Of a stretch of 64,000 nt of DNA, positions 905 through 40,728 are shown in pieces. Below the pieces are notes generated by a model. It was given only the letters and a program-made list of their open reading frames with translations, had not been told where the DNA came from and did not search any database. How positions within the stretch are numbered: position 1 is the stretch's first letter; each line of letters opens with the position of its first letter. This DNA comes from Macrostomum hystrix (taxonomy: Eukaryota; Animalia; Platyhelminthes), in the NCBI GenBank assembly GCA_950097015.1, contig CATNEN010000011.1, positions 2,790,001 to 2,854,000 on the forward strand. Direction: 5' to 3'. Both the position numbers and the translations under genes were made by a program.

Positions 905-1932
905 TGAAGAGTTTTGCGTGTTGATCAGACACACGAAACTCCCACTTCTAGACAATGGGGAACAATTGCCTAGGAATTTATAACAGTCACGTGACACTTA
1001 CTGCAATTGCTTCTTCTTCCTTAAGTAGTTCGTAGTCTTCTGGGTCCTTGAAATCCGGTAGTTCTTCTTCTTCTGGTCGACCGTGAGGTTTCGAGTCTGT
1101 GTTTCTTGAGTCTTGGTAGTCTTGTCTTCTTTTGTCTTCCTGGCAGCTGCTTGAGTTTGTCTGTTGGCCAATAAATGACGAGAGCGAATCAGATTACTTT
1201 TCGGTTTCCTCGAGCTCGGAATTCACAATAGAAACGTGCGCCCTAGTGAACAATTGAAATCTTTCTTGTATATCTCTAGTAGGTCCTCCTGAAGGGCGTC
1301 TTCTTCGTTACCTCCGAAAGATAACGGATAACTCAAATCAAATCAATCAATAATCCTCTAGGAATGTATCCTAGGAAACAAGGAGGCCTTTCTCAAATGT
1401 ATCGACGATATGTGGCTCTCGTAAACTTAGTTCAATTCAACAACTATTGCTAGCAATAAATTACTCTGTCTAGTAAAGCGCTTACCACTTGTCTTTCCCT
1501 CAGAGATGAGTCCTCTTCTTCGTAAGGTGTTTTGAAGTCCGGTGGACCGCTCCGAGTCTGAATTTTTAGCTCGGATTTTCGCTTGTATTTATAGCAAAAC
1601 CTTGGGGAAAAACCGGTTCTACTACCGGGTGTTTACTTAGGTCACACATATTTGTTTAGTGAGTCATGATTGTGAGTTTTTACCATATTTGGAATACAGT
1701 GCAAACACAGACGCAGAACCCGATGAGTCATAATTGTTTGCTTTACCATATTTGGAATTCAAGCAAACACAGCTGTCAAGAACCGGTTCTCCGGTTTCAT
1801 GTCACATGACTGTTTCTAAAAATAGCGTATGACTCATTCCTAAAAATAGATTAAATGTTGTAGCTAAGAGTTCCTTATGGCATTACTTTAAGTAGCGCGT
1901 TAAGCAAAAAGCACATTTTACAACTCTCTACA
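905..1932 (-). repeat. 3' LTR (1028 bp)
   Basis: On the element strand it starts TGTAGAGAG and ends CTCTTCA. No differences from 11995-13022 were seen on visual comparison. Confidence 0.96.
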
Positions 1933-1947
1933 ATATCTCCCTTTTTT
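1933..1947 (-). other. Polypurine tract (PPT)
   Basis: AAAAAAGGGAGATAT on the minus strand directly precedes the TG of the 3' LTR. Confidence 0.85.
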
Positions 1948-2354
1948 ACGAAAAATTCGTCCCGAATTTATTGTTGAGAGGAAAAGAAAATAGCATAACA
2001 ATAATAAGATAACATCACGTATTGACAGTATCAGGACTAGGTGAAATGGATTTAGGTGCGTATGGGTAGACATTAAAACACAAATGGATTATATCAGTGG
2101 TGTAAGTAGTTGGTTAAATGTTCGTGAAAAGAAATTGACAATTTGAGAAGCGATGTGTAACCATTTTGGCATTGAAAATCCGTCACCATTGTATAACAAA
2201 GAGTATCTTGACATTTAGCGTATAGTGGGTTGTCAATAACATAAAATTTTGGATTGTATTGGTTAACATGAGGGAGTGATAAACATGGGAAGGTATATGC
2301 AATAATCAATGGTCTGTTTGTTTTACTAGTTGATGCAATCAAAAATTTTTTTAC

Positions 2355-2978
2355 TTATTCAAGGCTGAATTGATGCCGGATATATTCATGTATTTGTGCT
2401 TGAGTTTTGACCGTTAGTATGGCTATTGGCCAAAATAGTTTATATAGTTGCAGGTAGGCCGGATCTTCCGTATGCTCGAGGATATAGAGGTAGGCCTCTG
2501 TATCCGTGACAATTTCGGCTCGGCGTGTCAGATGCTCGCCTAGTTGAAGTAAATATTGCCGATGTTGTTGGCATCGTAGTGGTGTCGGCCACGTCTTTAT
2601 TGTCTCTCGTAATTCCTGAGGCTCCATGTCATGCACATTCATGAGCAGTAGGTCCACTGCTACCGGTGTTAATTGTACCGTAGCTAAGGGTTCCGCTCGC
2701 ATCCGTAGGAAACAATCGGGGCATTTGTCGATATTTCGACTGCCGAGTGCCTCTAGGCAGGTAAAGCAGCTCCAGTGACGGTTGTCACAAATTTGTATTT
2801 GCGGTTGATTACCGCAAATGAGACAGTGGACCCTGTCTCGACAGCAGATTGGGCAGGTGCGTATTGGGTTGCCAGTTTGCTTTGCGGCTGTCTCGCATTG
2901 TTGGCATGTCCCATGTCCGACTTCGCATATGGGCATTAGAGTGGTCTGCTCGTCTAAGCAAATAGGGCAGTCTGGCAT
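2355..2978 (-). CDS. Retroelement accessory protein 2: two tandem RING-HC (C3HC4, C-x3-H type) fingers + helical C-terminus, 207 aa
   Basis: CPIC-x10-CEVGH-GT-CQQC-x13-CPIC followed by CLIC-x8-CDNRH-WS-CFTC-x11-CPDC. ATG start; lies inside the element between pol and the PPT. Confidence 0.85.
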   Translation of the reverse strand: MPDCPICLDEQTTLMPICEVGHGTCQQCETAAKQTGNPIRTCPICCRDRVHCLICGNQPQIQICDNRHWSCFTCLEALGSRNIDKCPDCFLRMRAEPLATVQLTPVAVDLLLMNVHDMEPQELRETIKTWPTPLRCQQHRQYLLQLGEHLTRRAEIVTDTEAYLYILEHTEDPAYLQLYKLFWPIAILTVKTQAQIHEYIRHQFSLE

Positions 2979-2999
2979 TGTTGTCTGTGGGTGGTTTGT

Positions 3000-3650
3000 T
3001 TAATGGACTTCTTGATCGGAGTTGACATATTCATATGATTCGTGTGGTGGCAGTAGATACGATAAGTCTTCATTTCTTAAAATTAGTGTGGGTAAAATTG
3101 TACAGAAAATGGGACAGGGATGAAGATTCATGTCATCGACAAGATTAAACAGTTTTTGTGCAATATCATGTATGGACAATTGTCGAAGCTCAGGGCCGTA
3201 TTGCAATGAGTATCGTACAATGTTTTTACGTGTTTTGTGAGCAATTCGTGGTATAGGCCATGCTTTTAGAAGTTGAATTATCTTATTAGAGGAAAAAAGA
3301 GTATAGGTTAATGGATGAAGTTGGCAACCATAATTTGGTTTAATACGCGCAAATTTGTTATAGATTACTAATAGTGGGGTATTATTGCAAACAGGACATT
3401 GGAAAATGGCTCGATAGGCAAACTTCTTTATACATTGCGGACACATAAAATGTTGGTTTTGACAGTATTGTACAGTTCGCCATGAGTTACATATCATACA
3501 TTGGCGGAGATTTCCACGGCACAAGGGACAGTTTTTTAATGGTTTTTTGTAGTGTGCGAGGCTTAAGCAAGAACCGCAAACATGGTGTTTATTGACACAT
3601 ATACATGGTAGTTTACATGAGAATTCTTCAAGACAGACAGGACAGTCCAT
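3000..3650 (-). CDS. Retroelement accessory protein 1: two tandem RING-HC fingers + C-terminal domain, 216 aa from ATG at 3650
   Basis: CPVC...CVNKH-HV-CGSC...CPLC and CMIC-x8-CQNQH-FM-CPQC-x11-CPVC. The ATG is in a strong Kozak context (ACCATGG); the ORF-track start at 3755 is a GTG. Confidence 0.85.
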   Translation of the reverse strand: MDCPVCLEEFSCKLPCICVNKHHVCGSCLSLAHYKKPLKNCPLCRGNLRQCMICNSWRTVQYCQNQHFMCPQCIKKFAYRAIFQCPVCNNTPLLVIYNKFARIKPNYGCQLHPLTYTLFSSNKIIQLLKAWPIPRIAHKTRKNIVRYSLQYGPELRQLSIHDIAQKLFNLVDDMNLHPCPIFCTILPTLILRNEDLSYLLPPHESYEYVNSDQEVH

Positions 3651-3781
3651 GGTAGTGTTCGCGAAAATTGTGTGGGCGTTTGCAGAGAACAGAGGTTTTA
3701 GTCGCCTTTTACGACAAGCTTGAGAAGCTGTAGTGCTATTCTTAATCCCGGTCACTACACGGGTAACAATAAACGAGTAAT

Positions 3782-6700
3782 TTAACGCGGGCGTAAGTTA
3801 TACGTATGAGTATTTGGTGGTGTGTTTGTGGTTTGTGTCTCGGCATGTGCTGTTGCAATGTGCTTGTTTGTTGTTTTTGTGTGGTCTGGATTCTGTAACG
3901 TTGGAAGGAATGTAGTGTCGTTAGTGATGCGTTTTAAACGTTGAATGTGAACGTAGAACTGAGGTTGATGTGGATCCTGGATATTTGCAAGGCGTGCTGT
4001 TGTCGCGGATATCAGTCCTGTTACACGGAAAGGTCCTTTGTATTTGAAAGCATGCTTGTGCGTATGCTGTGCCGGGTAGTGTAGGTAGACGATATCTCCT
4101 ACTTGTAAGGTAGAAGCATGATTACTTGTTGTAGGTACGGTAGATTGGTTGTCGAGATTATGTTTTGCAATTTGCCATGCTAGGTGTAATTGAGAAGTGA
4201 ACTTTTGTAGCGTCGTCGGCGTGTCAACATATTGAGATGGCAGTAATTTCTGAACTAATAGATTCGGTGGTTGAAAGTCTCGAGAGAACATCAGAAAGAA
4301 TGGTGTGTTCTCTGTTGAGCGATGAACTGCGCTATTGTAGGCCATTGTCACGGATTGTATGTAAATAATCCAATCTTCAGGTTGTTTGTAAACAAAGTGT
4401 GTCAGCATTTCATGTAGATTTCTGTGAAATCTTTCGACGAGGTTTGCTTTTGGATTATATGTCGAAGTGAATATTTGTTGAATATTCAGTAGTTTGGCGG
4501 CCTGTTGAAATAATTGCGATGTGAACTGTGTACCATTGTCAGATGTTAGCGTCTTAGGAGTTCCGAATTTGCAGATAATTTCATTATAGAAGGCCATTGC
4601 AACTGTTGTCGCTGTGATGTCAGGTATCGGAATGGCAACGGCGAATTTCGAAAAAACATCCAAGGCTGTAAGAATGTAGTTGTAGTCGATAGAGTGTTGT
4701 CGAGCCGGTGGTAGTGGTCCGGTAATGTCAATTGACACTGTGTCCCATGTAGTTGTCTTCGGCACTGATTGGAATTCAGGTTTTTGTCGTCTTCCGATTT
4801 TTGTTGAAGCACATGAGTGACATTGTGTGCAGTACTTGCGAATGTCTAAATTTATTGTTGGCCAAAAATAGAACTGGGCGACTCTCTGGATTGTTTTCTT
4901 GGCGGATAAGTGTCCTGCTAATGGACTATCATGGAGTTCGTGTAGGATCGCTGAACGGAATGTGTATGGTAGGTACAGTCGCGGAATATTGTTGTACACC
5001 CAGTAGAGTGCGAGTTCTCTGAAAACTAGACTATTTTTGTGTTTTCGTAAGAATTGTTTTTCGATTTTTGTAAGTTCATTTTCCGTTTCTTCTGTATCTT
5101 CTTGTATGGCTTTGTAAAAGGAATCGTCTTGTTGTGCTTTCAACAAGTCTTTTATGGTTGGAATTGGATGAACTGCATTGATCTCGTATGTTCTGGACAG
5201 TGCATCAGCGGCTTTATTCATTGGCCCTGGTTTGTAAACCAGGTGAAAGTTGTAGTCCTGTATTTTGAGGACCATTCGGATGAGTCTATTGTTCGTCTGT
5301 CCTTTTGTTTTAACAACGTGAGTCAGCGGTGCATGATCTGTGCGAATGATAGTTGGCAGTGGTGATCCATAGATGTAGTAATGGAATTGTCGAAGAGCAA
5401 ACAGAACAGCTAGTAGTTCTCGTTCAGTGGCTGACCATTTTGTTTCGTTTGGTCTTAGCGCTCTGCTGATGTAAGCAATCGGTTTTTCTTTCTTTGGTTC
5501 CATTTCCTGAAGTAGTACGGCTCCTAATCCGCTTCCTGATGCGTCTGTTTCTATGATAAAAGGTTTGTGGAAGTTCGGGTGTTTGAGAAGAGCATCACTA
5601 GTTAGTTGTTGTTTGATTCTATCGAAACTTTCCTGTTGTTCCGCTTTCCAGTTGTCTTCTTTCCACTTTGGAATTTTTAGTAGTTCGTACAATGGTTTAG
5701 CCGTTTGTGCAAAGTTAGGTAGGAATTTTCGGAAATATTGTGCTAGTCCAAGGAATGACTGCAGTTTGGTAATTGACGTAGGTTTCGGGAACTTCTTGAC
5801 CTTGTCGACGTTATTTGGGTCAGGTGATATGCCTCGTGACGAGACGTGATGTCCAAGATATCGGACCGAATCTCTGCAGAATTTACATTTTGTTGGTTGC
5901 AGTTTTAGACCTTGTTGTCGGAGTAAGAAGAGAGCTTGTTCCATGACTTTTACTAGTTGTTCAAAGTTATTTCCAAAGGCAAGAATATCATCAACATAGT
6001 GAAGCAGATTTGTACATCCGGCTAGCATATAGGCTGTAAGACGGCTCATTGTTGCTGGTGAGTTGGAGATTCCCATTGGACTTCTTTGATACGCGAAAAC
6101 TTCTCCTTTGTAAGTTTTGAAGGCAGTGTATTGTTTTGATTCTTCTTCAAGTTCGATTTGCCAGAATCCATGTCGTAGGTCAAATACGGTGAAGAGTGTC
6201 GCCGTATTGAGTCGTGCTAGCAGTTCTGAGATTTTTGGTAGACTTTGTTGATCGGTGGGAATGTACTTATTTAGGACTCGGAAATCACAGACGAGTCGTC
6301 TTTCGTTTGTTTCTTTCTTTTCGACAAGAAGGCAAGGTGAAGAATAAGCTGAGACGGTACGTTTTATGATTCCTGCTTTAAGCATTTTTTCTATGATTTC
6401 ATCGAAGTGTTGCTGTAGGTGTTTAGCGACTGGATATGGTTTACATTGGATTGGTTCTTGATGAGGTAGCAGTTCAATTTTTTGCTTGATATCTCGAGCA
6501 CATCCGATGTCGTAATCGTGATGACAGAAGACGTCGTTATACTTCCACAATAGATCTTTAACTTGTGTTTTTTGTCCTTCAGTGATTGGACTTTGAGAAA
6601 GATCAATTTGTTGTAGGAATTTTTGTTTAGACATTTTTGTTGTTGTGTCTGGTTGGATGAGCATTACCGAAGCTTGTGTGTTGAGATGTCCCATGCATGT

Positions 6701-9700
6701 TCCTGCATAAATTTTTACTGGATGTTGATTTGGATTTATAATTTGTACTGGGATGTTTCTTTCCTTTGTGATAAGGACTAGAGCCGTTGGTATTAAAACT
6801 TCTTTTGTTGTGAGGATCTTCTTTCTTGGTTCAAATATCATAGCTTCTTCGACATCGTCATGATTGGCGAGATATGCTTTAACCCAACATGTACTTTCCG
6901 GCTGTATGAAGACATCTTGTTTAATATGTACTTTTGGTTGAAGGTGAACTTGGCTGACTAAAGGATGTTCCACATTGTCCAGTTTGAATGTTTGTTTGTT
7001 AAAATCAAATGTTAATGGTAGATTCATTTGCCGAAATGTGTCGATTCCAATAATAACATCTTGGCTTGGAAGATGGTCAATAACAAATGCTTGTACCAGA
7101 AGTTGCTTGTTTGCAAGTTTAAGTGATATATTCACTTGTCCTAGGATATTAAGTGCATGTCCTCCGGCTCCAGCGACAGCGATTGAAGAAGGTCGCATAT
7201 GAAGTTGCAATTTGTCGTAGAGTCTTTTTGTGATGACTGTGATTGAACTTCCTGAGTCGAGAAGTGCTTTACTGGGCATGTTGTTTATAAATACTTGAGC
7301 CATCGCTCTACCCATATTGGCTTGCAAGGTGCAAATGTAATTTGCTGGCCATTTTGGATCCGTTGGTAGAGGAGGAGATTTCGGCGGTGGTCTCGCTGTT
7401 CTGATTTCAATTTTTGGGTAAATATTTGATGCTTCTGGTTCTGGTGCTGTTGGCAATAATTGTTTTCTTTGATCTTGTAGTAGAGTTTCTTCAATTTTTT
7501 CGTTGAGTGTAGTAGTTTCTTGTTGTTTGTCAATTTGGAAAATCCGTTGTTTTGCTGGATAGGCTCGTGCTACACATCGTACTACTGTGATAAAGATCAT
7601 TAGTGCAAGGTGAATCCATACAATGCATGCACTGGAGAAGATGAATCCCTGATAGTAACTTCCTTTTCCTTGGAGTAAATCGAGAAAGCTATTCGACCAA
7701 AAGGATCCTATTGCGTTATGTATGATGAATCCTGTCGAAAAGGATTGTTCTTTGTCCTGTTGGTTGTGTTGGGTAAAGAGCTTTTTCATCATCTGTCGTT
7801 GGGCGATAAAAACTTGAAGAAAATCATTAATTGTCCATCCTGGTGTGATTTCGTCAAGTTTGATGTCACCAAATGGTTTATAGGTGGTCTTATTTATCTT
7901 GAGCTGTAGGTCCGATAGTTCGTATGTTTCGTCGATAATAGCTTGCATACCAGTGATGTTTGTAATGTGCCCAGTTGTTGAGACCTTGTGTAGTTTATTA
8001 TTAATGTTGAAATAGTTGACTGCGTCAGTGCAGGGTCTCGGGATTGCAGTTCCAACAATTATATTGTGCACAGTATCTAGAAATCCTTGAATTCGTTTCC
8101 CATTGTAGTAAGCTTCGATTCTGGGTTTATCGTAGCACGTAGTTGATGTGTTTGATGGCAAGATATTAAAATGATGCAGTGGCACACATTTGTAAATCAA
8201 CAGATGGCCAGAGATGGGGATAGCTAAAGCATCTTGAATCCCTGTGATTTTTCTGAATGTAGACGTTGGATTGACATAATAGTTTTGTCGTGCATAGTTA
8301 AGTGCAGTTTCGTGCATTCTACAAGTCAGTTGGATCAGTGATTTGTGCAAGTAGTTTAGTTCTTTATGTAGGTTATGTTCCATTGCTGCGAGTTTTGCCG
8401 CTAGTAGTCGTGCAGAAACCATTGATGGTCTTTGTAGTTCTCTCTTTTTCCGAGCTGTGTTGGTTCTTGTTGAATAAGTACCATTGACCAGTCTCATAAA
8501 GGTATCCTCATCCATATCACGTAATTCGAGCGGTATCTCTTGTTCAGACACTAGAAGTTTTTTAGAGTTCTCCTTGCAGTTAATTTGGAGATACTTGGCT
8601 TTTTTTGGAAAAGTTAGGGCAAAATCCGACGTACTCGCAAGGAAGGTATTTGACAGTAGACTTCCTTTTATTGTATGGTACTTCTGGAATTTACAATCAA
8701 TATTCGGTTCAACTTTCCATGCAACGAAGTACTGTCGTTGGTATTCTGTAATCTCATAGTATGGGCTGTGTCGATGTTCAATTTGCCATTTGTAATTTTG
8801 ATGATATGTTGGAGCCAGCGGTACTTGCCATACTGCTTCGTTCCAGAGTTTTGCTGTTTCGCAGAACCCTGTGTTGTACTTGCAATCTTCCATTGATAAT
8901 TGTAGAGATTCCATGTTTTCAAATGGATTGTGGTAAAACAAGACTTTCCGGATCAAGTAACTGTTTGTCGTGGTGTAACGTGGCCATATGTATTCGTTCC
9001 AATGGACATATCTACCGCTCGCACTGTTCTTGGTCCTGAAGAGTTGAGAGTTTCCAATTTTTTCATCGGCATGAAGTTCTCCATCTTTAGAAAATAATGT
9101 TTGGTTCCACTGGAGGCATTCTTCTTGTGTGACAGGCAGTGCTGTTTGCCAGAATCGGATGCGATTCCATTGGATGTACCAAACCTTTTCGAGTTCATGT
9201 TTATCTCGGAAACAGATAATACCATATTGTCTATGTTTCTTTGTGTTTGCTTTGTAGACATCGATCGTTAATGGAATAGGTTTTGTTTGATTAGTTTTAA
9301 AGTAACTGCACTTGATTTCCGTTGGTATTTTGTAGATGACTGGTTGGATGTTGGCATCAGTAGGACATATCATGGGCACTGAAGATGGTACAACTGTCGG
9401 GAGAAGTAACATCACGATGGCTGAAAACAACCATCTTATCAGTATGTGCCGTTTCTTTTTCTTCACTTTGGTTGGTGTTGTCGGTTTATTGGTGTTTATT
9501 GAGTATCGTTGGTCTTCTGTCTCTCCAATTGGTGGAGTAAGGCGCATAGAAAAGTGCCATGGGTTGTTGCATCCTGATGGTCTGGTTTGTTGGTTATACC
9601 AGGTTGGTTGTTTCATATTGAATGTTAATGGTGTATTGAGAGTTTGCAGTACGGTACTTGTAGTATCCGTTCTCATGTCGATCCACGTTGTTGGTTCATC

Positions 9701-11461
9701 ATAGATATGATCATCATCATTTTCCATCGACGTATTGTAGTCACTTTTAGTCTGAGAAGATCTATCGTGCTTCGAGTAGTATGATTCGGTATTCACTGCT
9801 TTATCGTGTCCATTCTGTCCTTCAGATGAATTGACATGGGTTATGTTTTCGTATTCGGGATCAGGTTTGTACTTGGGTGTCGAAGGCGGTGTCTCTGTCA
9901 AGTCGATGTCATCGACTAAAATTTGTAACATGCTGATGTTTTCTTCAGACGTGTTGTGTGAATTTTTCGCACTGTGTTCCTCATTATTCCTTTCTGTGGA
10001 TGTGGACAATTCATCTATGCCTTCTTTGTTTTGCAGAATTTTTGAAAGATCACTCATCGTTGGAATTTTGAATAATCCTTTAATTTGTTGTTGTAATTGT
10101 TTTCGTTCAATGTGTTGACAGGTGTTGAAGGCAACACTTTCTCTTGGCGAGGGAGTCGATAATTCTTCAAACAATGAACCCATTATGCAGCTACTGTCGT
10201 TGCTTATGTTGTCGTTCTGTATTTTCTGTGTTGACTCATTGTTGTAGTAAAAATTGTTTTCTTCTGTATCCTCAGTTTCCTTTTGTGGCATGGGCGGCTC
10301 TTTCGAATGGTCGCTTTCGATTATAGTAATATAGGCTGCACCATCGTTGTCCAGATGAAGGTCATTGATTTCTTGCTCCTTCTTTTGTTTCTCAAGTTCA
10401 TCAAGAACATTGACGGAAAAGTCTGGCATAAGATCTTCAATCTTGAACTTTGGTTCAATAGTTTGAGTGTATTCAGGCTCAATAGCTTGAGTGTATTGTC
10501 GACGGACTTGCGTTGGTTGTCTTGGAGGTGGAGGATTTCTTTGTTGACGATAAGGTACGATGGCATTAGATGGTCTACTATCTTGTTGTCGACTATTTGT
10601 CCAATTACGGTTTGAAAGCTGTCTTGGAGGACGAGTCCAATTGGTCTGTCTATTGTCATTGTATGAACGTGGGTTGCCACGTGATCTGCAGTCTCTAGCA
10701 TAATGACCGATCCTTCCACAGGTGTAACAAGTTGATGTGTGCAAGTATCTCTGTTGTGGTTGTGGATAGGAATATCTCTGCTGTTGTGGTACAATAGCAG
10801 AAGTTTGGTGTTGCTGCATGAGTTTGCTTAATTGTTCTGCTAGTTGTGTCGTGTCACTATTATGAGTAGTCATAAGAGGTGCGCTAGCTTCCCATTGCAT
10901 TCCACAACGGAGCAATTGTTCCTCTGTGTTAATAGTTTCTCTCAGCAGTCTATCTCGCAAAGTAGGCTGTGCGTTGTTAATCACATGAAGTATTAAACTT
11001 TGTTCCCGGTCTTCAAGACGTTGTCTTTCTCGTGCAGCTGATTCGGCAGGTCCTATAGGTTGAGCTCCTTGATCCAATGGTGGAGGCTGATGTAATGCTT
11101 TGATGATCTTACGGATGTCATCAACAAAGGTGAGAAAACTCTCAGTGGGACTCATTTTTCGATTATGAAGTTTATGAAGGAGTACCGATCTGTTTGTTCC
11201 ACACCGTGCGAATTGTGCTCTCAGTTGGGTAACTAGAGCTTGATAATCTTGTTGTACTGCAGCTGTCAATTTTCCATAGATTTCTCGAGCTGTTCCTTGT
11301 AACAGTGGAGGTAGGAGGAGTGCTTTCTCTGCATTCTGTAATCCATATTCGCGTGAGACCAAATCAAAGTGATCAATGAATGTGTTGAAATCTTTATCCA
11401 TTGTATACATTCCGACCGTTTCCTTAATGTCACGATGGACCTGATAGTTTCTTCGTGCCAT
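3782..11461 (-). CDS. Single Gag-Env-Pol polyprotein (~2559 aa from ATG 11461)
   Basis: Gag CCHC knuckle CYTCGRIGHYARDC (~10688-10729). Hydrophobic signal-like stretch (~9385-9450), RKKR (8441-8452), TM (~7585-7650). PR LLDSGS (~7250), RT YVDD (~5987-5998), RNase H TDAS (~5540). IN with HHCC (~4830-4940), D..D..E core and GPF motif (~4030). No stop or frameshift in between. Confidence 0.95.
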   Translation of the reverse strand: MARRNYQVHRDIKETVGMYTMDKDFNTFIDHFDLVSREYGLQNAEKALLLPPLLQGTAREIYGKLTAAVQQDYQALVTQLRAQFARCGTNRSVLLHKLHNRKMSPTESFLTFVDDIRKIIKALHQPPPLDQGAQPIGPAESAARERQRLEDREQSLILHVINNAQPTLRDRLLRETINTEEQLLRCGMQWEASAPLMTTHNSDTTQLAEQLSKLMQQHQTSAIVPQQQRYSYPQPQQRYLHTSTCYTCGRIGHYARDCRSRGNPRSYNDNRQTNWTRPPRQLSNRNWTNSRQQDSRPSNAIVPYRQQRNPPPPRQPTQVRRQYTQAIEPEYTQTIEPKFKIEDLMPDFSVNVLDELEKQKKEQEINDLHLDNDGAAYITIIESDHSKEPPMPQKETEDTEENNFYYNNESTQKIQNDNISNDSSCIMGSLFEELSTPSPRESVAFNTCQHIERKQLQQQIKGLFKIPTMSDLSKILQNKEGIDELSTSTERNNEEHSAKNSHNTSEENISMLQILVDDIDLTETPPSTPKYKPDPEYENITHVNSSEGQNGHDKAVNTESYYSKHDRSSQTKSDYNTSMENDDDHIYDEPTTWIDMRTDTTSTVLQTLNTPLTFNMKQPTWYNQQTRPSGCNNPWHFSMRLTPPIGETEDQRYSINTNKPTTPTKVKKKKRHILIRWLFSAIVMLLLPTVVPSSVPMICPTDANIQPVIYKIPTEIKCSYFKTNQTKPIPLTIDVYKANTKKHRQYGIICFRDKHELEKVWYIQWNRIRFWQTALPVTQEECLQWNQTLFSKDGELHADEKIGNSQLFRTKNSASGRYVHWNEYIWPRYTTTNSYLIRKVLFYHNPFENMESLQLSMEDCKYNTGFCETAKLWNEAVWQVPLAPTYHQNYKWQIEHRHSPYYEITEYQRQYFVAWKVEPNIDCKFQKYHTIKGSLLSNTFLASTSDFALTFPKKAKYLQINCKENSKKLLVSEQEIPLELRDMDEDTFMRLVNGTYSTRTNTARKKRELQRPSMVSARLLAAKLAAMEHNLHKELNYLHKSLIQLTCRMHETALNYARQNYYVNPTSTFRKITGIQDALAIPISGHLLIYKCVPLHHFNILPSNTSTTCYDKPRIEAYYNGKRIQGFLDTVHNIIVGTAIPRPCTDAVNYFNINNKLHKVSTTGHITNITGMQAIIDETYELSDLQLKINKTTYKPFGDIKLDEITPGWTINDFLQVFIAQRQMMKKLFTQHNQQDKEQSFSTGFIIHNAIGSFWSNSFLDLLQGKGSYYQGFIFSSACIVWIHLALMIFITVVRCVARAYPAKQRIFQIDKQQETTTLNEKIEETLLQDQRKQLLPTAPEPEASNIYPKIEIRTARPPPKSPPLPTDPKWPANYICTLQANMGRAMAQVFINNMPSKALLDSGSSITVITKRLYDKLQLHMRPSSIAVAGAGGHALNILGQVNISLKLANKQLLVQAFVIDHLPSQDVIIGIDTFRQMNLPLTFDFNKQTFKLDNVEHPLVSQVHLQPKVHIKQDVFIQPESTCWVKAYLANHDDVEEAMIFEPRKKILTTKEVLIPTALVLITKERNIPVQIINPNQHPVKIYAGTCMGHLNTQASVMLIQPDTTTKMSKQKFLQQIDLSQSPITEGQKTQVKDLLWKYNDVFCHHDYDIGCARDIKQKIELLPHQEPIQCKPYPVAKHLQQHFDEIIEKMLKAGIIKRTVSAYSSPCLLVEKKETNERRLVCDFRVLNKYIPTDQQSLPKISELLARLNTATLFTVFDLRHGFWQIELEEESKQYTAFKTYKGEVFAYQRSPMGISNSPATMSRLTAYMLAGCTNLLHYVDDILAFGNNFEQLVKVMEQALFLLRQQGLKLQPTKCKFCRDSVRYLGHHVSSRGISPDPNNVDKVKKFPKPTSITKLQSFLGLAQYFRKFLPNFAQTAKPLYELLKIPKWKEDNWKAEQQESFDRIKQQLTSDALLKHPNFHKPFIIETDASGSGLGAVLLQEMEPKKEKPIAYISRALRPNETKWSATERELLAVLFALRQFHYYIYGSPLPTIIRTDHAPLTHVVKTKGQTNNRLIRMVLKIQDYNFHLVYKPGPMNKAADALSRTYEINAVHPIPTIKDLLKAQQDDSFYKAIQEDTEETENELTKIEKQFLRKHKNSLVFRELALYWVYNNIPRLYLPYTFRSAILHELHDSPLAGHLSAKKTIQRVAQFYFWPTINLDIRKYCTQCHSCASTKIGRRQKPEFQSVPKTTTWDTVSIDITGPLPPARQHSIDYNYILTALDVFSKFAVAIPIPDITATTVAMAFYNEIICKFGTPKTLTSDNGTQFTSQLFQQAAKLLNIQQIFTSTYNPKANLVERFHRNLHEMLTHFVYKQPEDWIIYIQSVTMAYNSAVHRSTENTPFFLMFSRDFQPPNLLVQKLLPSQYVDTPTTLQKFTSQLHLAWQIAKHNLDNQSTVPTTSNHASTLQVGDIVYLHYPAQHTHKHAFKYKGPFRVTGLISATTARLANIQDPHQPQFYVHIQRLKRITNDTTFLPTLQNPDHTKTTNKHIATAHAETQTTNTPPNTHTYNLRPR
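7560..9465 (-). other. Envelope glycoprotein domain (class III fusion protein, herpesvirus gB/chuvirus G-like) embedded in the polyprotein
   Basis: Signal peptide, 12 ectodomain Cys, six N-X-S/T sequons, furin-type RKKR and a C-terminal TM. NPTSTFRKITGIQDALAIPISGHLLIYKC resembles the gB motif NPTxxxxxxxGxxxxAxxxGDxxxxxxC. Confidence 0.8.
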
Positions 11462-11975
11462 ATTCGCAACTGGGAACGGAAATAATTCAAGTTCTGGATC
11501 GATGTTCAAGGGTTCGTCCAGATTGACTTCTCTGACAAGATTTAGTGTGAATAAAAAGTGTGTGTGTGTGCGTGTGCGTGTGTATCAGCAAATTGAAAAT
11601 GGTTTACACAGAGGAATTATTTACTCAGGACAAGGGAGAAAAATTTATACAAAGCAGGGAACGTATGCCGCTTTTAACGCTGAAAAGGGGTTATTGAAAT
11701 GTGAGCCGGTGAGTTCAGTCGCGCGATTCCCAGGTGTGCAAACAATAGAGCGAAGTGACGCGTGTGGCTTATGTGCAAACAATATCCGGTAGGGACAGCA
11801 AAATTTTTCAGAGGGATGACGCAACAAAATTTTTATGAAACGGTGGATTATTTTAAATCAAAAGCAAAATTAATAAGTTGCAAAAATTTTTTTTCCTTTT
11901 TTTTTTATGTTAAAACAATTCGAAAGGGGTACCGCAAAAAATGTTTTGTATCTCGGCCTGGGCTTGATTGCAGGG

Positions 11976-11992
11976 CCTGGGCGAGATCACCA
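11976..11992 (-). other. Primer-binding site, probably tRNA-Val
   Basis: TGGTGATCTCGCCCAGG begins 2 nt after the 5' LTR. It is complementary to ...CCUGGGCGAGAUCACCA, which matches the tRNA-Val 3' end as I recall it from yeast (CCUGGGCGAAAUCACCA) with one mismatch. Confidence 0.75.
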
Positions 11993-11994
11993 GT

Positions 11995-13022
11995 TGAAGA
12001 GTTTTGCGTGTTGATCAGACACACGAAACTCCCACTTCTAGACAATGGGGAACAATTGCCTAGGAATTTATAACAGTCACGTGACACTTACTGCAATTGC
12101 TTCTTCTTCCTTAAGTAGTTCGTAGTCTTCTGGGTCCTTGAAATCCGGTAGTTCTTCTTCTTCTGGTCGACCGTGAGGTTTCGAGTCTGTGTTTCTTGAG
12201 TCTTGGTAGTCTTGTCTTCTTTTGTCTTCCTGGCAGCTGCTTGAGTTTGTCTGTTGGCCAATAAATGACGAGAGCGAATCAGATTACTTTTCGGTTTCCT
12301 CGAGCTCGGAATTCACAATAGAAACGTGCGCCCTAGTGAACAATTGAAATCTTTCTTGTATATCTCTAGTAGGTCCTCCTGAAGGGCGTCTTCTTCGTTA
12401 CCTCCGAAAGATAACGGATAACTCAAATCAAATCAATCAATAATCCTCTAGGAATGTATCCTAGGAAACAAGGAGGCCTTTCTCAAATGTATCGACGATA
12501 TGTGGCTCTCGTAAACTTAGTTCAATTCAACAACTATTGCTAGCAATAAATTACTCTGTCTAGTAAAGCGCTTACCACTTGTCTTTCCCTCAGAGATGAG
12601 TCCTCTTCTTCGTAAGGTGTTTTGAAGTCCGGTGGACCGCTCCGAGTCTGAATTTTTAGCTCGGATTTTCGCTTGTATTTATAGCAAAACCTTGGGGAAA
12701 AACCGGTTCTACTACCGGGTGTTTACTTAGGTCACACATATTTGTTTAGTGAGTCATGATTGTGAGTTTTTACCATATTTGGAATACAGTGCAAACACAG
12801 ACGCAGAACCCGATGAGTCATAATTGTTTGCTTTACCATATTTGGAATTCAAGCAAACACAGCTGTCAAGAACCGGTTCTCCGGTTTCATGTCACATGAC
12901 TGTTTCTAAAAATAGCGTATGACTCATTCCTAAAAATAGATTAAATGTTGTAGCTAAGAGTTCCTTATGGCATTACTTTAAGTAGCGCGTTAAGCAAAAA
13001 GCACATTTTACAACTCTCTACA
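11995..13022 (-). repeat. 5' LTR (1028 bp)
   Basis: Direct repeat of 905-1932, followed by the PBS on the element strand. Confidence 0.96.
12645..12940 (-). promoter_or_regulatory. LTR U3 promoter/enhancer: TATA box and clustered MEF2, CArG and AP-1 motifs
   Basis: TATAAATA (minus, 12676-12683) with TCAG about 30 nt downstream. CTAAAAATAG x2 (12906, 12930), CCATATTTGG x2 (12773, 12836), TGA(G/C)TCA x3 (12750, 12814, 12920). Confidence 0.55.
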
Positions 13023-14585: not shown

Positions 14586-16528
14586 CGTCAGCAACAGCAG
14601 CAGACGCGGCAGCGCGAGGCTGTCGACGAACTGCGTCGGCTACGTCAGCAGCAGCTCGAATCTAAGCTGGCCGCCGAAGCGGACCGCCTGCAGCGTCAGC
14701 GCGAGGAGGCCAACAGGCTGCGCGCGGAGAAGGCTGCACAGGCCGAGGCTCGCAGGCGGCGAGTGCTGGAGACCGCGCAGCGCCTTCACGAGGAGCGACT
14801 GAAACGGCTGCTACTGCCAAAGACTCTGGCGCCATCTGCTCCTGCTGCTGCTGCCGCTGCCGCATCTTCTGCTGTTAAACGACCTCCGCCGATGTCCGTT
14901 AAGAAAGCGATTACGTCAACTATTGTCAAGATTGCTGTAGAACGTCAGCTCTCGCCATCGTCTCCAATTTACGAGCCGGAGCCGGTTGCGGTTGAACAGT
15001 CGACTGAGGCTCGCATGATGCACTTTAAAGTTTGCGATAGCGGCGGTAGTCTGGTAAGCTTAGTCTGTTAGGGCTCTCAAACATTTTAACATATATATAT
15101 ATATACTGCCCCTCCCTCGGGCCCCATTTCATTATTTCCTTATCCTCATATATTATTCCACTTCTCCTTATGCCACATTCCGCCCCTCAGGTTCCATTCC
15201 GCCCCTCCCTCAGGTCCCATTCCTCCACTCCACCAGGTCCCGTTCCTCCCCTTCCTCAGGTCCCGTTCCTCCCATCAGGTCCCATTCCGCGCATCCCTCA
15301 GGTCCCATTCCGCCCCTCCACTAGGTCCCGTTCCTCCCCTTCCTCAGGTCCCGTTCCTCCCATCAGGTCCCATTCCGCGCATCCCTCAGGTCCCATTCCA
15401 CCCCTCCATCAGGTCCCATTCCGTCCCTCCATCAGGTCCCATTCCGCCCCTCCATCAGGTCCCATTCCGCCCCTCCATCAGGTCCCATTCCTCCCCTCCC
15501 TCAGGTCCCATTCCGCGCATCCCTCAGGTCCCATTCCGCCCCTCCATCAGGTCCCATTCCGCCCCTCCATCAGGTCCGATTCCTCCCCTCCATCAGGTCC
15601 CATTCCGCGCATCCCTCAGGTCCCATTCCGCGCATCCCTCAGGTCCCATTCCGCCCCTCCATCAGGTCCCATTCCGTCCCTCCATCAGGTCCCATTCCGT
15701 CCCTCCATCAGGTCCCATTCCGCCCATCCCTCAGGTCCCATTCCGCCCCTCCATCAGGTCCCATTCCTCCCCTCCATCAGGTCCCATTCCGCCTCTAATT
15801 ATTTAACTGCGAGTATTTAATTAAAACATTCACTTTGTAATCCCCAAACAAATCAGGTACTGCTTCGTTGCGACTTAAAAGAGCTAGACCAAAAGCAGCA
15901 GCAGCAACAGCGGCATCAATCCGGGCACAATGATCTACAAGCTCCAATAGATGAATGGTTGCCTGATTCAGCCAACCCACTGCCGCCTTTATTTAATCTA
16001 ACAGCTACTGAGTCAACTAACGCTATGGAATTGGAGGAAACCAATGCTGAGACTGAATCAACTGAAGCACATGCAGTCCCGGTTGAAGAAGCTGACGAGC
16101 AACAACAAGACGATTACGGAGATGCCACAGACGACACCGACGAACAGTTTAGTCGAGCAGAATTCGCCGACGATGCCCTAGCTGACTGGGTGACCGAGGA
16201 TAATTTGTACAGGCTTTTTTCTAAACAAAAATTCGACGGCCCGGCCTGGTGGCGAGTGTTTCGGCCTGTGGATGTCGGCATTCGCTTAGCCGAATGTCTT
16301 TACTGCGCATTTGAAGATGTCGACTATGCGAAATTAGATCATGCAGCCCATGACGACTGCGATAATAATAATCTGAGCTGCTCCGGCGAAGGTGACTGTC
16401 GGCCAGACGGCGACTCGGACGCCTCCGCTAGACGACGCCGTCGATGGCTAGAGCGGCGAGGCAGTTCCGCTCTCTGGCGAACTCCGCCGAGCGATGTTGT
16501 TAAACGATTGCTCAATGATGCTCGATAA
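14586..16528 (+). CDS. Uncharacterised coiled-coil/acidic protein (exons 14586-15053, 15857-16528; start not identified)
   Basis: ttacag acceptor; E/R/Q/A-rich heptads; ctg|gtaag donor joined in phase 0 to atcag|gtactg; acidic second exon ending at a stop. Confidence 0.6.
15170..15795 (+). repeat. 23-bp minisatellite (caggtcccattccgcccctccat)n, intronic
   Basis: Direct reading of the tandem units. Confidence 0.95.
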
Positions 16529-16599
16529 GTGTTTTGTTCCTTGAAATTGCTCTTTTTTACACTAGAACTTAATGACACTGAGGAAAATGGGGAATTTTT

Positions 16600-17455
16600 G
16601 GGATTGGAGAGTTTAGGAAATGAGGAGTTTAGGGATTTGGGAGTTCAGGAAATGAGGAGTTTAGGGATTGGGGAGTTCAGGAAATGAGGAGTTTAGGGAT
16701 TTGGGAGTTAGGAAATAAGGAGTTTAGGGATTCTGGAGTTCAGGAAATGAGGAGTTTAGGGATTGGGGAGTTCAGGAAATGAGGAGTTTAGGGATTTGGG
16801 AGTTTAGGAAATGAGGAGTTTATGGATTGGGGAGTTTAGGAAATGAGGAGTTTAGGGATTGGGGATTTGGGAGTTCAGGAAATGAGGAGTTTAGGGATTT
16901 AGGAGTTTAGGAAATGAGGAGTTTAGGGATTTGGGAGTTTAGGTAATAAGGAGTTTAGGGATTCTGGAGTTCAGGAAATGAGGAGTTTAGGGATTGGGGA
17001 GTTCAGGAAATGAGGAGTTTAGGGATTTAGGAGTTTAGGAAATGAGGAGTTTATGGATTGGGGAGTTTAGGAAATGAGGAGTTTAGGGATTGGGGATTTG
17101 GGAGTTCAGGAAATGAGGAGTTTAGGGATTTAGGAGTTTAGGAAATGAGGAGTTTAGGGATTTGGGAGTTTAGGAAATGAGGAGTTTAGGGATTGGGGAG
17201 TTTAGGAAATAAGGAGTTTAGGGATTTGGGAGTTTAGGAAATGAGGAGTTTAGGGATTGGGGAGTTTAGGAAATGAGGAGTTTAGGGATTGGGGAGTTTA
17301 GGAAATGAGGAGTTTAGGGATTTGGGAGTTTAGGAAATGAGGAGTTTAGGGATTTGGGAGTTTAGGAAATGAGGAGTTTAGGGATTTGGGAGTTTAGGAA
17401 ATAAGGAGTTTAGGGATTCTGGAGTTCAGGAAATGAGGAGTTTAGGGATTGGGTA
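16600..17455 (+). repeat. ~32-bp G-rich minisatellite (ggagtttaggaaatgaggagtttagggatttg)n
   Basis: Tandem units built from two 16-bp subunits. Confidence 0.95.
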
Positions 17456-18129
17456 CGAGTAGTTAAGGTATCATCGAGTTTATTATTTAGGATGTTAGAG
17501 TTATGGGATTTTAAACTTTCGTGAATCGTGCAGTGACTATCTGTGCCCAGATGTTAGTACCTAAGAGTCAAATGGTTTTTAGTTTTTAGTTTAATAATCT
17601 CACTAAAGTTTTTATAGTCTAAAACAAGCATTTACTAAGCCGAAATAATCACTATATTTCAGGCATTTAGGTAAGACTCTAAGGTTTTTATCATTGCTAC
17701 TGAACTATTTCGCCTTTGCTGTAAATAACTTTTACATATAAGCAATCGAATGGTGCTTGCAAATGCTTACATAGCAACTGATTTACACTAATGCTTCTTA
17801 TTGTTTATTGAAATATTTTTACTTAGCCCAGTCTGTCTGTTTTGCCAAATGAAAGTCATTTAGTTTTTATTCTTACCATTATATGCACAAATAAATTGTA
17901 CATACTGTTGTCTTTTTGTACTTTCTCGGTCTAGTTGACAAAAATAAACAAAAATTATACAAATAGGTGTACAACAAAATTGTAGATATTTCATTAAAAA
18001 AGGCCACACTGAGTAATGCTTATATTTGACCGTTTTTGTACTTTCAGTTTGCGCTTTAAGCTAGGCATTTAAACTTCCCATTGCTTCAGTTCACACATTG
18101 TTAGCGTGGCTGTATGTACATCTAGTCTA

Positions 18130-18250
18130 GCTAATGCTGGGTGAAGTTGAATTTATTGCCTTGGTAAATAGTACAGATTCTTCTATTGGATTCTTGAATC
18201 GAACCGACGACCATCATAGCCATGAGTCCAACGCTCTAACCATAAGGCGA
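18130..18250 (-). mobile_element. Degenerate tRNA-derived SINE (CORE-like) fragment
   Basis: Minus strand has a tRNA-like head (ATGGTTAGAGC...GGTTCGATTC) followed by TTCACCCAGC, as in the copy at 45417. Confidence 0.45.
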
Positions 18251-18368
18251 CAATCAACCCATTCTACTAATCTACTTATAGTATTTTAATAATTAAGACG
18301 TTAGCGTCTTTTGCACAGCTAAATTGGTCATCTAAGCATGCAGTCCGTCCAGAGTTGGCTCGCTTCTT

Positions 18369-20767
18369 CTAACGGAAGCCCTTCTTGGTGCCTCTCTGTT
18401 CGTCCCACTTCATGGCCAGCCGGTAGACAGGGGCGCTCAGGAACAGGTTCAGGTTGGCCATCACCCAGAACCAGAAGCTGAAGGCCGGGTAGCCGCCCTG
18501 ATAATTGGACCAGATGATGTAGAGAATCCAGCTGATCAAAAATAGAAACCCGGCCACTATTAGTAGGATCACCACCGACCACATGACGCGAATGTTCAGT
18601 TTAACGCGAGGCGCGCACAGTTCTACTAGGACCAGAATCATAATAACTAGAACAATCAGCAGCGATAGGATTGCGAAGATCAGCACGACCAGTGGAAACG
18701 CTGCGAATGCAATTGTGAAATATTTTTAAAAGAAATTTTGAAAAAATGAAATCTCACCTACTACAGGTGTCTCCTGTTTTATAGACCTGTGTGTACCATA
18801 GACAGTGTCTTCCGTACTATAGACATGTACCATAGATATTGTCTTCTTTTCTATAGACTGATGTGTGGATCCTGTTCTATAGACTGATGTGTGTCCTGTT
18901 CTATAGACTGATGTGTGTCCTATTCTATAGACTGATGTGTGTCCTGTTCTATATACTGATGTGTGTCCTGTTCTATAGACTGATGTGTGTCCTATTCTAT
19001 AGACTGATGTGTGTCCTGTTCTATATACTGATGTGTGTCCTGTTCTATAGACTGATGTGTGTCCTGTTCTATAGACTGATGTGTGTCCTATTCTATAGAC
19101 TGATGTGTGTCCTATTCTATAGACTGATGTGTGTCCTGTTCTATATACTGATGTGTGTCCTGTTCTATAGACTGATGTGTGTCCTATTCTATAGACTGAT
19201 GTGTGTCCTGTTCTATAGACTGATGTGTGTCCTGTTCTATAGACTGATGTGTGTCCTATTCTATAGACTGATGTGTGTCCTATTCTATAGACTGATGTGT
19301 GTCCTGTTCTATAGACTGATGTGTGTCCTGTTCTATAGACTGATGTGTGTCCTGTTCTATAGACTGATGTGTGTCCTATTCTATAGACTGATGTGTGTCC
19401 TGTTCTATAGACTGATGTGTGTCCTGTTCTATAGACTAATGTGTGTCCTGTTCTATAGACTGATGTGTGGATCCTGTTCTATAGACTGATGTGTGGATCC
19501 TGTTCTATAGACTGATGTGTGTCCTGTTCTATAGACTGATGTGTGGATCCTGTTCTATAGACTGATGTGTGTCCTATTCTATATACTGATGTGTGTCCTG
19601 TTCTATAGACTGATGTGTGTCCTGTTCTATAGACTGATGTGTGTCCTATTCTATAGACTGATGTGTGTCCTGTTCTATAGACTGATGTGTGTCCTGTTCT
19701 ATAGACTGATGTGTGTCCTATTCTATAGACTGATGTGTGTCCTGTTCTATAGACTGATGTGTGGATCCTGTTCTATAGACTGATGTGTGTCCTATTCTAT
19801 AGACTGATGTGTGTCCTGTTCTATAGACTGATGTGTGTACTGTTCTATAGACTGATGTGTGTCCTATTCTATAGACTGATGTGTGTCCTGTTCTATAGAC
19901 TGATGTGTGGATCCTGTTCTATAGACTGATGTGTGTCCTGTTCTATAGACTGATGTGTGTCCTATTCTATAGACTGATGTGTGTCCTGTTCTATAGACTG
20001 ATGTGTGTCCTATTCTATAGACTGATGTGTGTCCTGTTCTATAGACTGATGTGTGGATCCTGTTCTATAGACTGATGTGTGTCCTGTTCTATAGACTGAT
20101 GTGTGTCCTATTCTATAGACTGATGTGTCCTGTTCTATAGACTGATGTGTGTCCTGTTCTATAGACTGATGTGTGTCCTGTTCTATAGACTGATAGACAG
20201 TTAGACACAGGCGTCTCCTGTTAGACACAGGTGTCTCCTGTTAGACACAGGTGTCTCCTGTTAGACCCACGTGTCTCCTGTTAGACACACGTGTCTTCTG
20301 TTAGACAAAGGTGTCTCCTGTTGGACACACGTGTCTCCTGTTAGACATGGGTGTCTCCTGTTAGACACGGGTGTCTCCTGTTAGACATGGGTGTCTCCTG
20401 TTAGACACGGGTGTCTCCTGTTAGACACAGGTGTCTCCTGTTAAACACAGGTGTCTCCTGTTAGACACAGGTGTCTCCTTTTAGACACAGGTGTCTCTTG
20501 TTAGACACAGGTATCTCCTGTTAGACACAGCTGTCTCCTGTTAGACAGCTGTCTCCTGTTAGACAGCTGTCTCCTGTTAGACTCACCGACATAGTTATGA
20601 TAAGTCCAAGGCATGCCCAGGTGCCATTTGCAGGTGGAATTGTTGCTGCAGTCTCCCATTCGCCAGAAGTTCAGAATCAGCGAGCCGATGCCGGAGATCA
20701 GGGCGCTGACGGCACCCATGAATACCAGCCAGCGAAGGATTTTAGCTTTTGTCGATCTGGCTCCCAT
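18369..20767 (-). CDS. Small four-TM protein, PMP22/claudin-superfamily-like topology, 170 aa (exons 20587-20767, 18369-18700)
   Basis: G|GTGAGT donor and TTCGCAG acceptor join in frame (181+332=513 nt). Four hydrophobic helices; Trp/Cys-containing first loop. Confidence 0.65.
18850..20192 (+). repeat. 24-bp minisatellite (tatagactgatgtgtgtcctgttc)n, intronic
   Basis: Tandem units. Confidence 0.95.
20200..20580 (+). repeat. 20-bp minisatellite (gtgtctcctgttagacacag)n abutting the splice donor
   Basis: Tandem units run up to ctcctgttagactcac. Confidence 0.95.
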
Positions 20768-40400: not shown

Positions 40401-40443
40401 GCACAGAGGAAGCCAGTGTCTCTGTAACAACACCCTCAGCCAT
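28484..40443 (-). CDS. PRKX: cAMP-dependent protein kinase catalytic subunit, PRKX type, 356 aa (exons 39822-40443, 31730-31911, 28484-28750)
   Basis: [54 protein letters not shown]. Splice phases 1 and 0 are consistent (622+182+267=1071 nt). Confidence 0.9.
28825..31585 (+). repeat. 23-bp minisatellite (tctcaatagatctcactctctaa)n filling PRKX intron 2
   Basis: Tandem units. Confidence 0.97.
31960..34195 (+). repeat. 23-bp minisatellite (cacattttcactctggtgtccat)n in PRKX intron 1
   Basis: Tandem units, diverging to an ...ctacttccat/ctccattccat variant after ~33500. Confidence 0.97.
35353..35561. mobile_element. ~209-bp hAT-type MITE nested in the 3' UTR of the hAT element
   Basis: Ends TAGAG...CTCTA; flanking gccaagac / gtcaagac (7/8) look like an 8-bp TSD; internal gggatc/gggatt repeats. 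Confidence 0.55.
35586..37997 (-). CDS. hAT transposase, 803 aa, intact
   Basis: N-terminal BED-like finger (CTVC...H...H), SIDES, STDG, CSLH, TRW and AVERVFS dimerisation motif; K/E/A-rich coiled-coil tail. Confidence 0.92.
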   Translation of the reverse strand: MSLSKPRATAFRHEWLQRSIDGRVLSEWLQPDRSDELLGFCTVCKKSFHLGTSGFGAVTAHAQGKKHKSRLPVMNETGIAHFFPTQGSKPSFTAMKKADAEVLMAELRLGIHFIEHNIAYNTADHSGVYPAMFHDSKIAQDMKCHRTKLCYLVNHALAPVMRDEMIQDLNSGCGLFSLSIDESSDGARKHMAVVISFVSSKKGRLCTTALKTVEVSDCSAAALKEEVLKILDEFNIPIRNCVSISTDGPAVMVGKFNGFQKIMHDFASHLVSIGPCSLHIVSNAVRRACEAFDGNVEDFADEVFSYFQTSKRWTRYNKVQSLLQVAQHRMLRRVETRWVQLLPVVNRLIEQYDSLEEFFVKNPSLIEQKTKKTKEIAEHLKSTHTLLNLQFLAAVLPHLDQFEKAFQTEEPCVHLLHGEVRNLFRQTLSFFLNPAHIQENNRHLRNLSLEGKYFLSNEAIFIGEAAKETLKKGLSDTQQKLFFLRVRTFYRELALYLQEHLPLSNPVLRSLQFLDPQYPMKVGLAAATTSLAACNLAKQMEYTPDSVSKIDSEWRCFLVDQQVVALAKDNDVVTFWLRVSALELGGQKKYGTLTRLALGALTIQPGNAAVERVFSELSDLLTKKRNKLGELSIDACLFVRHYIRQSGLVGEEPTTCENFPLTDVYVQSAGKARSVYMEFLQQQRDADKAKKDARIAAKQLEEQLAAEIEVNKKKMELEAAEKKLAAEREIIEAEKRAASAMLLEYQKKMRTLEEREAKALHDDAKLLKRKLKTQDELAAEALKKAAKMICKSLENRTMGRTSN
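38925..39420 (+). repeat. ~26-bp minisatellite (ggacattggttctctgctgctggggg)n
   Basis: Tandem units with variable G-run. Confidence 0.95.
39421..39800 (-). repeat. 75-bp tandem array of tRNA-like units (3 near-identical + ~2 diverged)
   Basis: Units start at 39421, 39496 and 39571. The minus strand has A-box-like TGGCTTAGTCAGCGG and B-box GGAGTTCGAATCTC. Confidence 0.75.
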
Positions 40444-40728
40444 GGGGTCTGTGCTGCTTGATCAAGTCTCCAAAATTGTTGAATGAAAGATTTGCTTTAA
40501 CAAATGATCTCAAACTGAGGCCTGAAAAGGACGTTAACAAAGTTTTTAAGTGAATGATTAAATTAAGGGAATAAAAAACTTACAGCCTTTAATATAAAAT
40601 AAATTAACCTAATTCATTGCTTGGGGAGTAAAAACAGATAGGCTTTTTGTGAAATAAAAGTTTTTTAGAAACAAACTGTCTTTTCAATACTATCTGAGCT
40701 TTCCTACATCAAAAGCTAAGCAATGAAA

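Follow-up and report, generated by a model that had tools for sequence, protein, structure and literature searches.

An env gene placed in frame between gag and pol was described in 2019 for the Burro elements of planarians (PMC6431247). Errantiviruses with a gB-type ENV and the order GAG-ENV-POL, which are not monophyletic, are reported from Nematoda, Bryozoa and Platyhelminthes, and one of them, Mlig_errantivirus_2 of Macrostomum lignano, is listed with 16 copies in supplement 1 of the same work (PMC13524379; Chary and Hayashi, eLife 2026). In this study, we characterized a retroelement within a 64-kb window, the whole stretch of Macrostomum hystrix DNA that was analyzed. A sequence-only reading had considered its gag-env-pol layout to be possibly new. 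This claim fails, as families of the same layout are found in both publications (PMC6431247, PMC13524379).

The element shares with the GAG-ENV-POL errantiviruses of the HSV/gB type the gene order, a Ty3/gypsy Pol, LTRs and a gB-type env that has signal or TM segments at its borders (PMC13524379). Here, env lies uninterrupted between gag and pol, and its ectodomain, of predicted gB type, is flanked by a signal/TM segment on one side and a TM segment on the other. Moreover, the reverse complement of its 12-nt primer-binding site is the one given for Mlig_errantivirus_2 (PMC13524379). The two differ in size: Mlig_errantivirus_2 has LTRs of 863 bp and a length of about 10.6 kb (PMC13524379), while the present element has LTRs of 1028 bp and measures 12.1 kb in total. 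Hence, the element probably represents a sister family of Mlig_errantivirus_2, set apart by LTR and total lengths.

The complete element measures 12,118 bp from LTR to LTR and has the structural features of Ty3/gypsy elements, namely TG...CA LTRs, a target-site duplication (4 bp, TCGT in sense orientation), a primer-binding site and a polypurine tract (Table 1). It is young and intact, the identical LTRs marking a very recent insertion. No further copy was found within the window, and ARAGORN detected no tRNA there. Read evidence came from eight public runs (X1-X8) of two studies (P1 and P2, four runs each), in the form of contigs. The insertion site is a DDE_3 (IS630/Tc1-like) transposase region, recognized at 177-904 and beyond 13023 (PF13358, E 2e-9). 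A joint at 905/13036, present in seven of the eight runs, was considered as an empty allele and dropped, the flank itself being DDE transposase; the joined form differs slightly at the insertion site and may be another copy of the DDE transposon. Elsewhere, the window holds a hAT transposase-like frame of 816 codons (35586-38036, minus strand; Dimer_Tnp_hAT), host exons at 39802-40461 (minus) and 57068-57889 (plus) from a protein kinase and a PTB/PDZ protein, and tandem minisatellite arrays with units of 23, 16 and 24 bp (15100-19800).

Table 1. Coordinates of the element's features in the window.
Feature	Position	Strand	Detail or basis
5' LTR	11995..13022	-	1028 bp, TG...CA; identical to 3' LTR
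TATAAA in 5' LTR	12683		
GT-AG intron inside LTR (likely spliced)	12251..12575	-	joint 12250/12576; ends GTAAGC...CAACAG
GT-AG intron from LTR U5 (likely spliced)	2985..12091	-	joint 2984/12092; donor GTAAGT, acceptor CACAG
Primer-binding site TGGTGATCTCGC	11981..11992	-	
Single Gag-Env-Pol reading frame	3782..11461	-	2559 aa; ORF and Pfam scan
Gag, aa 1-260	10682..11461	-	zf-CCHC match
Polar spacer, ~410 aa	9446..10681	-	composition
Predicted internal signal behind KKKKR, aa 673-697	9371..9445	-	hydropathy 2.27
Envelope ectodomain, predicted class III gB-like fusogen, aa 698-1270	7652..9370	-	PF24664 and predicted fold
Predicted transmembrane anchor, aa 1273-1295	7577..7645	-	hydropathy 2.37
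Env tail / linker to protease, ~90 aa	7310..7576	-	motif scan
Pol: PR-RT-RNase H-integrase	3785..7309	-	Pfam and motifs
ORF2, 216 aa	3000..3650	-	two tandem RING-like Cys/His clusters
ORF3, 207 aa	2355..2978	-	two tandem RING-like clusters; target of spliced joint
Polypurine tract	1936..1947	-	
3' LTR	905..1932	-	1028 bp; identical to 5' LTR

The stop-free frame of about 2560 codons noticed in the sequence-only reading is real: it runs from an ATG at 11461 to a stop at 3782, with no internal stop. Pfam and hydropathy also bear out the proposed order of Gag with its CCHC motif, spacer, KKKKR with a hydrophobic signal, envelope, TM and PR-RT-RH-IN. On the gag side, zf-CCHC matches aa 244-259, where a single CCHC knuckle (aa 245-258) is found; the N-terminus reads MARR and has no Gly-2, and matches to Retrotran_gag_2 and DUF1759 are weak and below cut-off. 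On the pol side, aspartyl protease (1385-1483, with DSG at aa 1402), RT (1714-1873, with YVDD), RNase H (1938-2070) and integrase (2165-2337) follow each other in the order of Ty3/gypsy LTR retrotransposons (Metaviridae-like). Between the CCHC region and the protease lie 1114 codons, which at this base composition would stay open by chance with a probability of about 1e-30. The spacer is acidic at aa 331-600 and basic ahead of the signal; it is weakly conserved yet open, sharing 72 of 196 aligned residues with the relative P0122, against 156 of 261 identical residues in Gag. Frameshift control of Pol was rejected, as we counted five slippery heptamers where 9.9 are expected, none of them with a stable downstream fold.

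The same fusion was found in related proteins. The closest two, P0195 and P0002 (66-67%), are both from M. lignano and carry env fused in frame to pol; the alignment covers aa 696-2559 for P0195 (66%) and aa 1068-2559 for P0002 (67%). In P0122, gag, spacer, signal and the beginning of env are joined in frame. The representative search with the envelope yielded 67 matches, all of which were considered: a CCHC motif lies upstream in 22, a protease downstream in 23 and both in one protein in 11, many of the others being fragments. Among the best 120 of 949 Pol matches, 15 chosen by Pfam label, length or hydropathy comprise ten full Gag-env-PR-RT proteins, four env-pol proteins without the gag end and one fronted by a helicase, and a further protein (P0091) has env behind pol. 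P0074 carries an Upf1-like helicase (AAA_11/AAA_12) ahead of env-PR-RT in one protein of 3263 aa. In P0015, P0019 and P0020, which are fused Gag-Env-Pol relatives, further hydrophobic segments follow the integrase, and the first two of these proteins also have an Ig domain; judging from the additional segments, a second membrane protein is likely present in the same chain. A FastTree RT-RH tree was built from 120 of 121 proteins, P0031 being too short; it holds database matches only, some of them named 17.6/297-like, without curated references or an outgroup. The fused proteins fall into three groups in this tree. The element is placed with P0002 and P0007 (1.0) and then P0016 (0.94), and the next group, with P0086 of Meloidogyne, is a weakly supported sister (0.80).

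The envelope is predicted to be a class III fusogen of the herpes gB or mononegavirus type, on the basis of Pfam and the predicted fold. PF24664 (Monjiviricetes_fusion) is matched at 28 bits against a cut-off of 27 (E 7e-7) when the envelope region is scanned alone, and is absent from the scan of the whole polyprotein. A profile built from ten fused PF24664-positive relatives, nine with a full or partial stretch and P0098 also positive, matches the envelope at E 1e-10. In an envelope alignment of 48 members, PF24664 is recognized in 26 and herpes Glycoprotein_B in three, and the atlas ranks PF24664 clusters first for the envelope (0.93, recognition low). AlphaFold2 run on this alignment gave a model with pLDDT 81 and pTM 0.55, while the single-sequence fold was useless (pLDDT 33.5). 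With this model, all matches listed by Foldseek against the PDB are herpes gB (best E 5.6e-19, TM-score about 0.44), and viral matches are nyami-, chu- and rhabdo-like G proteins together with gB, headed by Nyavirus G (E 2.6e-22). When the envelope sequence was searched against solved structures, one chance match was returned (E 0.35). The modest model scores, that is, a pTM of 0.55 and TM-scores to gB near 0.44, weigh against our interpretation.

The ectodomain contains a furin-type RKKR (aa 1004-1007, nt 8452-8441); P0195 has RRRR in the corresponding position. The region was described as Cys-rich, which is true to a modest degree: aa 670-1330 contain 14 Cys (2.1%), where pol has 1.2%. The N-glycosylation sequons lack specificity, six lying in the envelope and ten in the presumably cytosolic spacer. 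Compared with P0195, 356 of 572 residues are identical in the ectodomain, 836 of 1169 in pol and 28 of 85 in the tail. Since the identity of the ectodomain is close to that of pol and that of the tail far lower, the envelope is under selection.

The polyprotein has only two strong hydrophobic peaks on the Kyte-Doolittle scale. The strongest 19-mers, at aa 673-691 (nt 9445-9389) and aa 1273-1291 (nt 7645-7589), coincide exactly with the signal and TM segment that had been claimed at about 9385-9450 and 7585-7650. The charge falls from +7 ahead of the signal to -1 behind it, and rises from 0 to +3 across the TM; this bias is positive-inside and fits a path from cytosol to lumen and back to cytosol. 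In all 12 fused proteins shown, a hydrophobic stretch precedes the first envelope Cys, and the TM anchor is identical to that of P0195 in 14 of 25 positions. Altogether, hydropathy, charge bias, conservation in relatives and the predicted fold indicate that the two-pass topology is likely. It had been likened to that of alphaviruses and flaviviruses, a comparison that stands for the logic of threading and not for the fusogen, because the listed fold matches are of class III, gB-like, and not of class II.

We observed the reading frame, the order of its domains, the LTRs, a predicted fold of gB type and the same fusion in relatives. Our preferred explanation, which we regard as probable, is a recent and intact Ty3/gypsy LTR element that likely encodes one membrane-threaded Gag-Env-Pol polyprotein. 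Gag and the spacer would be synthesized in the cytosol, after which the internal signal would start translocation and signal peptidase would cut behind it. Gag, which has no Gly-2, would stay membrane-anchored by its C-terminal end, the cleaved signal, which would replace an N-terminal myristate. The ectodomain would fold and trimerize in the ER lumen, with furin cutting at RKKR, and the TM would stop transfer, so that Pol would be made as the cytosolic tail of Env and packaged by membrane tethering. Env trimers and budding would gather protease copies, allowing the protease to dimerize and to release Gag, RT and IN. This scheme meets a difficulty, as RT and IN must reach the interior of the core though tethered outside it. 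Since there is a single frame and no frameshift signal was found, Gag, Env and Pol would be synthesized equally. A deletion form present in four of the eight runs could, however, skew the proposed 1:1:1 ratio.

That deletion form bears on a variant of the scheme in which the topology holds and the ratio does not, extra Gag being supplied by shortened RNAs or deleted copies. The joint 4060/8969 (4061-8968 deleted), found in all four runs of P2, leaves gag, the signal and the RING ORFs in place, but little of env and pol survives. However, its ends share a 3-nt microhomology and are not GT-AG, the frame stops 92 codons after the joint, and none of the four P1 runs contains it, so that it looks like a passive deletion copy. 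As no frameshift site was found either, and contig depth is no measure of expression, a Gag surplus of this kind is quite improbable. An assembly chimera, or an accidental fusion of env into a gag-pol element, would be another explanation. None of the contigs listed from the eight runs covers the element from end to end. A single long contig, of 5 kb in X3, crosses both junctions, from gag to PR, but has five extra letters at 9329-9335 that break the frame and mark a broken copy. Nevertheless, the spacer-signal-env junction is bridged without gaps in X4 and X6 (8969-9938) and the TM-PR junction in X1 (7029-7783) and X5 (7354-7691). The LTRs, target-site duplication, primer-binding site and polypurine tract are intact, and the relatives with gag-env (P0122) or env-pol (P0195, P0002) in frame already refute this explanation. 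We are therefore confident that the frame is continuous, and give an artifact hardly any credence.

The polyprotein might instead have two fates. The signal would often be missed and much of the protein would remain in the cytosol, where the protease would excise Gag and Pol, which would form ordinary particles inside the cell; surface Env would come from no more than a fraction of the protein. Gypsy elements without env transpose via cytosolic particles, the signal lies far from the N-terminus (670 residues in), and tethered RT and IN would not have to be brought into a core. On the other hand, the signal is strong, basic and then hydrophobic, its hydrophobic stretch is present in every fused protein shown, and an ectodomain of 570 aa left untranslocated would likely misfold. 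We consider a double fate unlikely, and favor the membrane-threaded polyprotein.

The Env tail of this polyprotein carries PTAP (aa 1337-1340) and YPKI, which we take to follow retroviral late-domain consensus patterns, with a putative function. A P[TS]AP motif is present in the TM-PR linker of six of 16 hand-picked fused proteins, where shuffling predicts 0.14; the six include all four members of the element's clade, the four being kin. It occurs nowhere else in the element's polyprotein and in only two of 22 further Env-PR proteins. Among the sequences compared, the motif is thus clade-limited, and it is a possible budding signal in the Env tail. PTAP would recruit ESCRT for budding.

Behind pol, ORF2 and ORF3 are paralogous (30% identical, E 1e-19). 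ORF3 matches Sina_RING (E 5e-4) and zf-C3HC4 (E 2e-3) below the Pfam cut-offs, while the sole match of ORF2 is at E 3.8. Viral RING proteins are the atlas look-alikes of ORF3 (0.90), a weak lead only, and none of 38 candidates between 113 and 363 aa in length proved to be a homolog of ORF3 at E 0.01. ORF2 (3033-3680) is far more variable between copies, with 23 differences in 651 letters (X6) against none in 580 for ORF3. A deletion of 2022-3458 in X3 and X7 takes out ORF3 and most of ORF2, indicating that some copies are without accessory genes.

The joint 2984/12092, whose acceptor lies 6 nt ahead of the ORF3 ATG, was found in all four runs of P2 and in none of P1. It was also considered as a DNA deletion, an option dropped in view of its GT-AG ends. 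ORF3 is likely made from spliced RNA starting in the LTR, as suggested by these ends and by the absence of the joint from the other study, in runs that are not recorded as RNA. RNA spliced in this way would lack the primer site, because the donor lies upstream of it. Contig depth is 56-125 on the ORF3 joint and mostly below 10 in pol, which is no measure of expression. The joint 12250/12576 inside the LTR occurs in five of the eight runs (X3, X4, X5, X6 and X8). In the eight runs, no such joint was seen for ORF2 and none removing env alone, although rare forms may drop out of contigs. As for the RING proteins, they would be ubiquitin ligases with host factors as targets.

Taken jointly, these features could describe an assembly turned inside out relative to that of retroviruses. 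Gag would hang from the membrane by a C-terminal signal anchor, Pol would enter attached to the fusogen as its tail, the late motif that recruits ESCRT would have shifted out of Gag into the Env tail, and splicing of an LTR-driven RNA would allow the synthesis of a double-RING ubiquitin ligase that disarms host defense or aids budding. We put this combination forward tentatively, with more doubt than conviction; if true, it would amount to a complex-retrovirus-like program in a flatworm. In any case, a compact and intact copy of 12 kb is a far simpler object than a 30-kb Burro for studying how a polyprotein is threaded, cut and packaged. It may help to address the entry of enzymes into particles of an envelope-carrying retroelement that has no Gag-Pol fusion, and the role of accessory RING genes. 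Its identical LTRs, its relatives in a laboratory flatworm and the signs of spliced transcripts speak for it as well.

Searches of the open literature, without Repbase, retrieved no dedicated paper on envelope elements of Macrostomum and none on RING accessory ORFs or a late motif in a retrotransposon Env tail. Neither accessory RING genes nor late motifs were found in the text of PMC13524379, and its main text does not use "polyprotein", "fused" or "single ORF"; its figures or sequence repository may show the accessory genes or the single ORF. In rotifer elements, extra ORFs behind pol are common, RING not being mentioned in the part of the source concerned (PMC5408684). Thus, the two RING ORFs, their likely splicing and the possible budding signal in the Env tail look undescribed.

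Burro and GYPSM1 exceed 30 kb and have an ORF of 4873-5140 aa with MATH, SUMO-like, BCL2, BIR and ankyrin domains, and the section on Burro does not discuss membrane threading (PMC6431247; Arkhipova and Yushenova 2019). The element described here has 12 kb, a frame of 2559 aa and two small RING ORFs behind pol. With its 12.1 kb and no MATH, SUMO, BCL2 or BIR domain found by Pfam, it is not a member of Burro, although its layout works like that of Burro. Non-canonical endogenous retroviruses with ENV before POL are also cited in PMC13524379. Their hosts, in contrast to ours, are nematodes. Nematode retroviruses were reportedly found by Sacco et al. in 2022 to have a continuous gag-env-pro-pol ORF and a nyamivirus-like glycoprotein. 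If so, the likeness extends to the envelope, whose top viral fold match here is the G protein of a nyavirus. Atlas virus and the nematode belpaoviruses likewise encode Gag, Pol and Env in one stop-free polyprotein; unlike the present element, they have the order Gag-Pol-Env, a Bel/Pao RT and a class II fusogen (PMC9094657). Because of this order, the Atlas virus chain needs no return to the cytosol for Pol. Altogether, the layout was already known, and the M. hystrix element is a further GAG-ENV-POL element of the kind published from flatworms and nematodes.
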